From: a virus
Lineage: Duplodnaviria; Heunggongvirae; Uroviricota; Caudoviricetes
Direction: 5' to 3' (one strand)
Virus record (IMG/VR): IMGVR_UViG_2663762857_000030
Location: 1-8,473 of that record
Length of the DNA stretch: 8,473 nucleotides
The translations under genes and the position numbers were made by a program. Positions within the stretch are counted from its first letter, which is position 1. Every line of letters starts with the position of its first letter. Below, piece after piece: positions 6,299 to 6,712 of the stretch. The notes below the pieces were generated by a model. The model saw only the letters and a program-made list of their open reading frames with translations, was not told the DNA's origin and searched no databases.

Positions 6299-6712
6299 AT
6301 GGCAACGAATGAAAGCATCATGGCGCTACCGCTGGCGAGTAAATTTAAAGCAGAAGCGCGGGCAATGGCTGACAGAGGTTTATCAACCTACGAGGCCGTA
6401 TATCAACTCAACAAACTGGAAGAGCAGGACAAGCCGCGCGCTGATGCGATTATGGCGCTTCATGAACATAACGACTATCAGCCGCTGTTACGTGCAATGG
6501 CAAACGTGCCATGTATTAGCGTCGATAATGCTCGTGAAATCCTGAACATGACCATAGAGCAGGAGCGCCCAAAGGTTGCGCCGGAGCTTACCGCAGCCTT
6601 TGAAAACTTTATGGACATGCACAGCCCGAAAGCCGTATCACCCGGCATGGCATACGACGGCAGAAACCAGGGCGATGAAGGCGACGTCGATCGCATACTG
6701 AAAACCATCTGA
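6299..6712 (+). CDS. Hypothetical protein (137 aa), last gene of the capsid operon, just upstream of a cos site
   Basis: ATG 6299 after GGGGA; stop TGA 6710-6712 is followed at once by a terminator hairpin. Acidic C-terminus. No family recognised. Confidence 0.6.
   Translation: MATNESIMALPLASKFKAEARAMADRGLSTYEAVYQLNKLEEQDKPRADAIMALHEHNDYQPLLRAMANVPCISVDNAREILNMTIEQERPKVAPELTAAFENFMDMHSPKAVSPGMAYDGRNQGDEGDVDRILKTI

Follow-up and report, generated by a model that had tools for sequence, protein, structure and literature searches.

The window analysed here, a stretch of 8,473 nucleotides, contains most of a cos PICI (a phage satellite) of the EcCICFT073 type. It includes a D5_N/primase gene (1436-3190), an SSB gene (3754-4164) and, on the plus strand, a gene for a transcriptional activator of the PerC family (4172-4423; Pfam PerC, E 7e-35). 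This activator gene is located shortly before the capsid operon, with two terminator-like hairpins (4446-4463 and 4619-4650) downstream of it. The capsid operon is a tight block of four genes, all of them on the plus strand. The first is an ORF of 68 aa (4678-4884) that matches phrog_3255 (E 1e-36) and has no match in Pfam or NCBIfam; its stop codon overlaps the start codon of the coat gene in the sequence ATGA, and it is kept at the same position in the four related islands that were examined (L001, L004, L006 and L008). The second gene codes for a major capsid protein of the lambda gpE family (4884-5939; Pfam Phage_cap_E, E 6.9e-50) and is the homolog of c1499 of EcCICFT073; the third codes for a head decoration protein of the lambda gpD family (5951-6286; Pfam HDPD, E 1e-17) and is the homolog of c1500. 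The fourth and final gene (6299-6712) encodes a protein of 137 residues, which is the subject of this work. Downstream of the operon lie a cos site, the rpp gene (6875-7309, plus strand), which is the next gene and stands outside the capsid operon, and a second, inverted copy of cos that corresponds to cos2 of EcCICFT073 (7478-7555, minus strand). The product of rpp had been read as Nu1-like in the original prediction, made from the sequence without database searches; it is instead an Rpp protein (RppC, PDB 6hlk, E 5.1e-31). At its right end the window reaches the N-terminus of the AI-2 transporter gene tqsA (8327-8473, minus strand). In E. coli 300709 a related island splits tqsA into two parts (L001 2636-3541 and 14503-14646), and therefore tqsA is the integration site of the island in the window; EcCICFT073 sits elsewhere, adjoining phoQ in strain CFT073. 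The island is devoid of portal, protease and large terminase genes.

The 137-aa ORF extends from an ATG at 6299 to a TGA at 6710-6712 and codes for a protein of 15.3 kDa with a pI of 4.9. A Shine-Dalgarno-like motif, GGGGA, is found 5-6 nt upstream of the start codon. The ORF starts 12 nt past the end of the gpD-like gene, which in turn starts 11 nt past the gpE-like gene. Only 4 nt downstream of the stop codon begins the intrinsic terminator that closes the operon (6716-6741, plus strand); it is formed by a hairpin (6716-6737) with a 9-bp stem and a GAAA loop, and by a T-run that ends at 6741. The hairpin has a predicted energy of -17.4 kcal/mol (z = -3.3), and it is absent from the output of a consensus terminator scan. 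The terminator is followed by the cos site (6743-6820, plus strand), recognised by alignment with the lambda cos junction, which by its position corresponds to cos1 of EcCICFT073. A lambda-like cosQ-cosN region spans positions 6743-6800 and contains the 12-nt cohesive-end sequence GGGCGGCGACCT at 6774-6785; the similarity to lambda stops where cosB begins, and cosB is of a non-lambda type. The original prediction had placed the gene at the end of the capsid operon, followed at once by a terminator and cos, and this arrangement is borne out by the 12-nt gap, the hairpin and the cosQ-cosN region. It had also described the protein as acidic toward the C-terminus, which is only mildly true, given that each of the two final 23-residue segments has a net charge of -2.

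The 137-aa protein shares 90% of its residues with its counterpart at the corresponding position in CFT073, and the published primers used to clone c1501 in pBAD18 match the flanks of the 137-aa ORF; hence, this gene is the homolog of c1501 of EcCICFT073, and the two can be considered orthologs that occupy an equal position and show no structural difference. In the published description of EcCICFT073, c1499 was reported as a capsid homolog, c1500 as a decoration protein and c1503 as RppA, and c1501 was given no function (Fillol-Salom et al. 2019, PMC6739421). A search of the literature returned no Nu3-like or scaffold gene described in Gram-negative PICIs, and the earlier record for cos PICIs noted only an unexplained homolog of the coat protein. 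It has been shown that the deletion of c1499 or c1500 leaves transfer and interference unchanged, that all the DNA packaged when lambda is the helper is phage-sized, and that the native helper gives no band of PICI monomers, even from an island whose c1499-c1501 block is intact (PMC6092414). Likewise, lambda plaquing was no lower when c1501 was over-expressed from pBAD18 (PMC6739421); no deletion of c1501 was found in the literature. Given the deletion and packaging results, the whole capsid block is dispensable under laboratory conditions. We suspected that the c1501::tetA marker could have disrupted the gene, which would void the observation that no small capsids are formed; this suspicion was rejected, since the primer sequences place the cassette immediately past the stop codon and the ORF is intact. 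Capsid genes that are strongly conserved and yet lack a laboratory phenotype represent a puzzle in satellite biology.

The block formed by the 68-aa ORF and the coat, decoration and 137-aa genes recurs in the E. coli strains CFT073, 300709 and IHE3034 and in a diverged Logan contig. In the sister island of IHE3034, a TerS gene (180 aa, L008 7622-8164) replaces rpp beside an identical block layout; the block may therefore be joined to either Rpp or TerS, which indicates that it assorts independently of the packaging gene and that the 137-aa gene travels with the coat gene. Near-full-length copies of the 137-aa gene were detected in 591 of the 5426 complete E. coli genomes (approx. 11%), the gene was present in 596 genomes in all, and the coat gene of the island was near-full-length in 622; in other words, about one in nine complete E. 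coli genomes carries it, including O157:H7 and ExPEC strains. Compared with two other islands, the gene shows a dN/dS of 0.33-0.43, and the values for the coat and decoration genes are around 0.1. The 137-aa gene is under purifying selection, and it is a real ORF rather than a product of chance. The satellite coat protein shares 44% of its residues with lambda gpE and 46% with the coat protein of the CFT073 prophage, and the decoration protein is 37% identical to lambda gpD. Since identity to the satellite coat protein never exceeds 48% among the phage coat proteins of the collection, the capsid block represents an old lineage that has been maintained separately.

A particular feature of the 137-aa ORF is that it constitutes a hot spot of divergence. 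In the diverged island of the Logan contig (ERR3372453, L006), the protein at the same syntenic position (P0040, 1873-2277) is only 38% identical to the one in the window, and the neighbouring proteins are 84% (coat), 85% (decoration) and 83% (Rpp) identical. When both islands are compared, the nucleotide identity falls to 0.4-0.6 only within this ORF. It is the fastest-evolving gene of the block, and its dN exceeds that of the coat gene by a factor of 2.5 to 7. Despite this low identity, conservation is good over the first 16 residues, and the last six do not vary. The confinement of the divergence to this ORF in L006 suggests either an allele replacement or diversifying pressure.

In lambdoid phages, the S49 prohead protease gpC shares its scaffold tail with the nested scaffolding protein Nu3. 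The 137-aa protein had been regarded as unrecognised, and this holds for Pfam, NCBIfam and the PDB sequences, where no match was found; however, it does not hold for PHROGs, in which the protein matches phrog_1999, a family of unknown function, from end to end (E 6.7e-62). For a second family, phrog_53, annotated as 'head maturation protease', the match is restricted to the C-terminal part (columns 494-567 of 583; E 1.5e-9). In the reciprocal searches, residues 117-200 of lambda Nu3 matched phrog_1999 (E 2.7e-26), and the C-terminal 137 residues of the S49 protein gpC of a CFT073 prophage matched columns 1-135 of the same family (E 7e-70). Since both Nu3 and the gpC tail match phrog_1999, this family corresponds to the Nu3 scaffold tail, and the 137-aa protein is one of its members. 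The gpC protein used in these comparisons has 501 residues and belongs to a lambdoid prophage located 10 kb from EcCICFT073.

Other comparisons point in the same direction. When the family of the 137-aa protein was compared by hhalign with an alignment of Nu3 proteins that included lambda Nu3, a probability of 96.8% (E 2.5e-10) was obtained over residues 48-118, and with BLASTP, residues 49-131 aligned to residues 416-493 of the CFT073 prophage gpC with 36% identity (E 7e-10). A phmmer search of 1.84 billion representative proteins returned a match to a Nu3-type protein of 195 residues (P0041) with a library-wide E value of 2.3e-4; the relatives of this protein are the C-termini of S49 peptidases (PF01343), and one of them is named 'phage capsid assembly protein'. 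In a tblastn search of 50,697 phage records, the single match lies directly upstream of the gpD and gpE genes of phage 204576. A direct BLASTP comparison with lambda Nu3 gave nothing, so that the link needs profiles or the closer gpC proteins of lambdoid phages. The search of genome contigs (one genome per species) with the family alignment yielded no relatives, and in the fold searches the protein matched no scaffold structure, whether solved or predicted. Taken together, these comparisons leave little doubt that the 137-aa protein and the non-protease scaffold tail of gpC and Nu3 are homologous. The Nu3 scaffold region acts inside the procapsid, before DNA is packaged. The original prediction proposed the gene as a candidate for a packaging or capsid-completion factor; its functional membership in the capsid block is supported by the homology to a capsid-assembly family, and no unrelated housekeeping family emerged as a confident homolog. 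Nevertheless, the proposal stands only in part, because the gene is related to the capsid but through procapsid assembly; neither similarity to FI nor a match to a Pfam connector family was detected.

The architecture of the protein can be understood from that of its relatives. Nu3-type proteins contain from one (lambda) to three (the CFT073 prophage and Salmonella prophages) units of approx. 40 residues with the consensus RIMxL.EA.GRE.LA..LA..PGMT.EQA..IL, which are followed by the motif F..FM..HSP and a short hydrophobic end. A hidden Markov model of the repeat unit matched residues 48-82 of the 137-aa protein (i-E 5.5e-7) and, weakly, residues 4-13. The protein shows one degenerate repeat (approx. 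residues 4-38) and one clear repeat (residues 48-82), with the form IMxL...P.[IM][ST]V..A..IL, the F..FM..HSP motif at residues 101-110, a disordered acidic linker and, finally, an invariant C-terminal RILKTI sequence. In a MAFFT alignment, the whole protein aligns to the Nu3 proteins with three repeats, with the middle repeat missing, and RILKTI is placed opposite the LLMSIP, MLMAMP or LLNTPV ends of those proteins. A model obtained with AlphaFold2 predicts a helical domain in residues 1-90 (pLDDT 80-95), disorder in residues 111-128 and a terminal helix in residues 127-136; this model rests on the MAFFT alignment with which it was built, as the single-sequence model was uninformative.

The residues that remain invariant even when P0040 is considered are those of the segments IMxLPLASKF (7-16), YQ.LL.AM.NVP.I (60-73) and RILKTI (132-137). 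The F..FM..HSP motif is present in most members of the family; however, it was lost in P0040, and thus it cannot be essential. Two natural variants of 93 residues (P0030 and P0031) lack residues ~24-67 as the result of an in-register deletion between the repeats (…EARAMA|NVPCI…), which leaves a mini-scaffold with a single repeat.

Judged from its sequence, the protein is a previously unrecognised member of the Nu3-type scaffold family that appears in a new setting, i.e., it stands alone, is free of a protease domain, is encoded by a satellite and is located after the gpD-like gene. It resembles lambda Nu3 and the gpC tail in its homologous sequence, in the repeat pattern IMxL..(EA.GRE)..LA..PGMT..A..IL, in the F..FM..HSP motif and in the hydrophobic C-terminal end; besides, genes of the gpD and gpE families adjoin it in the island of the window and in four others, as they do Nu3 in lambda. 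The differences are also conspicuous. Lambda Nu3 is nested in frame within the protease gene C, whereas the satellite gene is independent, and no S49 domain was detected anywhere in the window. The order of the genes is E, D and the Nu3 homolog in the satellite, in contrast with C/Nu3, D and E in lambda. The EA.GRE core of the Nu3 repeat is replaced by HEHNDYQ or LPLASKF, and there are one clear and one degenerate repeat instead of the three found in Gifsy-like and CFT073-type prophages. For these reasons we refer to the product of the 137-aa gene as mini-Nu3.

We consider it probable that mini-Nu3 is a scaffold that serves the gpE-like coat protein and the gpD-like decoration protein of the satellite itself. 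For lambda, the reported partners of Nu3 are E, B, C and Nu3 itself (PMC3224144). By analogy, the capsid operon would be expressed upon induction of the helper, and mini-Nu3 would bind through its conserved segments to the interior of the satellite coat protein, which is approx. 45% identical to any helper coat. The best candidate for the coat contact would be the invariant C-terminal RILKTI helix, as suggested by comparison with the C-termini of the Nu3, P22 and 80alpha scaffolds. Bound in this way, mini-Nu3 could chaperone or nucleate the polymerisation of the coat protein on the portal of the helper, and it would be removed by the helper gpC protease before DNA packaging. The coat and decoration proteins of the satellite could then enter, or form, heads that carry PICI DNA.

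Other satellites encode homologs of the capsid proteins of their helpers, and in this sense the island resembles those that carry the Ccm protein of SaPIbov5 and the cf-PICIs. However, Ccm of SaPIbov5 is a homolog of the coat protein alone, and the cf-PICIs encode a full head set, i.e., portal, protease, terminase and connectors; the island in the window, with only coat, decoration and scaffold genes, is intermediate. The scaffold assignment implies that cos PICIs of both the Rpp and TerS types carry the three shell proteins of the lambda type: coat, scaffold and decoration. A speculative extension is that EcCICFT073-type cos PICIs are shell-forming satellites, placed between the classical PICIs and the cf-PICIs, in which the trio of proteins builds the shell of the transducing particle when a natural helper is present, and the portal, protease, terminase and tail are borrowed; we regard this as possible but rather unlikely. 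If it were true, the shell could differ in size or stability, and the hypervariable mini-Nu3 could act as the adaptor through which the satellite coat protein is matched to the portal and the protease of a given helper. The identification of a putative scaffold makes the puzzle posed by the PICI capsid genes experimentally tractable.

An alternative role for mini-Nu3 is suggested by CpmB from SaPI1, a PICI-encoded protein that competes with the scaffold of 80alpha (Dearborn 2017, cited in PMC6092414). According to this alternative, mini-Nu3 would compete with the Nu3 or gpC of the helper for the coat protein, either sabotaging the helper heads or altering the curvature of the shell to give capsids of satellite size. 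As described, CpmB is also a small helical protein of the scaffold type with a C-terminal region of the capsid-binding type common with the helper scaffold, and mini-Nu3 likewise has a C-terminal scaffold region that it shares with the gpC and Nu3 proteins of the helper. It carries no protease domain, and its repeats are fewer than those of the CFT073 prophage protein; its condition as the fastest-evolving gene of the block would fit a role in an arms race or in specificity. Nevertheless, SaPI1 uses the coat protein of the phage, whereas the E. coli island supplies the coat and decoration proteins itself. Competition by CpmB has no equivalent in the evidence for EcCICFT073-type islands, which lacks any sign of size redirection or interference: c1501 expressed from pBAD18 does not inhibit lambda (PMC6739421), EcCICFT073 DNA is packaged at phage length with no band of PICI monomers even when the helper is the native one (PMC6092414), and RppA fully explains interference. 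A competitive role thus seems unlikely.

It could also be argued that the coat, decoration and Nu3-like genes are functionless leftovers of a lambdoid head module that was captured by the island and is decaying. The absence of a phenotype upon deletion of c1499 or c1500, or upon over-expression of c1501, agrees with this idea (PMC6092414, PMC6739421), as does the existence of the in-frame deletion variants P0030 and P0031. However, the ORFs are intact in approx. 600 genomes and across diverged islands, the 137-aa gene has a dN/dS of 0.3-0.4 and the other two genes one of approx. 0.1, and the termini of mini-Nu3 are invariant even when the overall identity drops to 38%. In addition, a coat protein with at most 48% identity to the phage coat proteins of the collection implies a long independent maintenance. 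In view of these results, decay appears quite improbable, and a scaffold that serves the satellite proteins is still the preferred interpretation.

A different identity is suggested by current annotations, since several homologs of mini-Nu3 (P0001, P0004, P0006, P0007 and others; H45) are named 'phage head-tail connector protein' at NCBI. A connector or adaptor similar to gp6 or gp15 would come into play once packaging is over, when the head is completed, and the gene orders of the HK97 type do place the adaptor genes just past the coat gene. On the other hand, none of the nine family members tested matched any Pfam family, connector families included, even with E values up to 10, no match was found in NCBIfam, the fold searches lent no support, and the majority of the RefSeq copies bear the name 'hypothetical protein'; the strong reciprocal homology is to Nu3 instead. 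The connector identity was therefore rejected, and we give it very little credence. Assignment to the Nu3 family corrects the RefSeq names, both the uninformative 'hypothetical protein' and the erroneous 'head-tail connector'.

Finally, a packaging chaperone similar to FI, or some other terminase cofactor that acts together with Rpp at the neighbouring cos, would agree with the position of the gene next to cos and rpp, with a small acidic protein close in size to lambda FI (132 aa) and with the location of FI after the coat gene in lambda, but this identity was also rejected and hardly deserves consideration, given that BLASTP produced no alignment with lambda FI, hhalign gave a probability of 0.04% against FI of the CFT073 prophage, a terminator and cos stand between the 137-aa gene and rpp, and in IHE3034 the block is paired with TerS and not with Rpp. 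Redirection of packaging is already accounted for by Rpp (PMC6739421).

Regarding the region that follows the operon, the two cosQ-cosN segments (6743-6820 on the plus strand and 7478-7555 on the minus strand) are 78 nt long, are 81% complementary and flank rpp in inverted orientation; both diverge at cosB. The presence of cos1 and cos2 had already been described for EcCICFT073 (PMC6739421).
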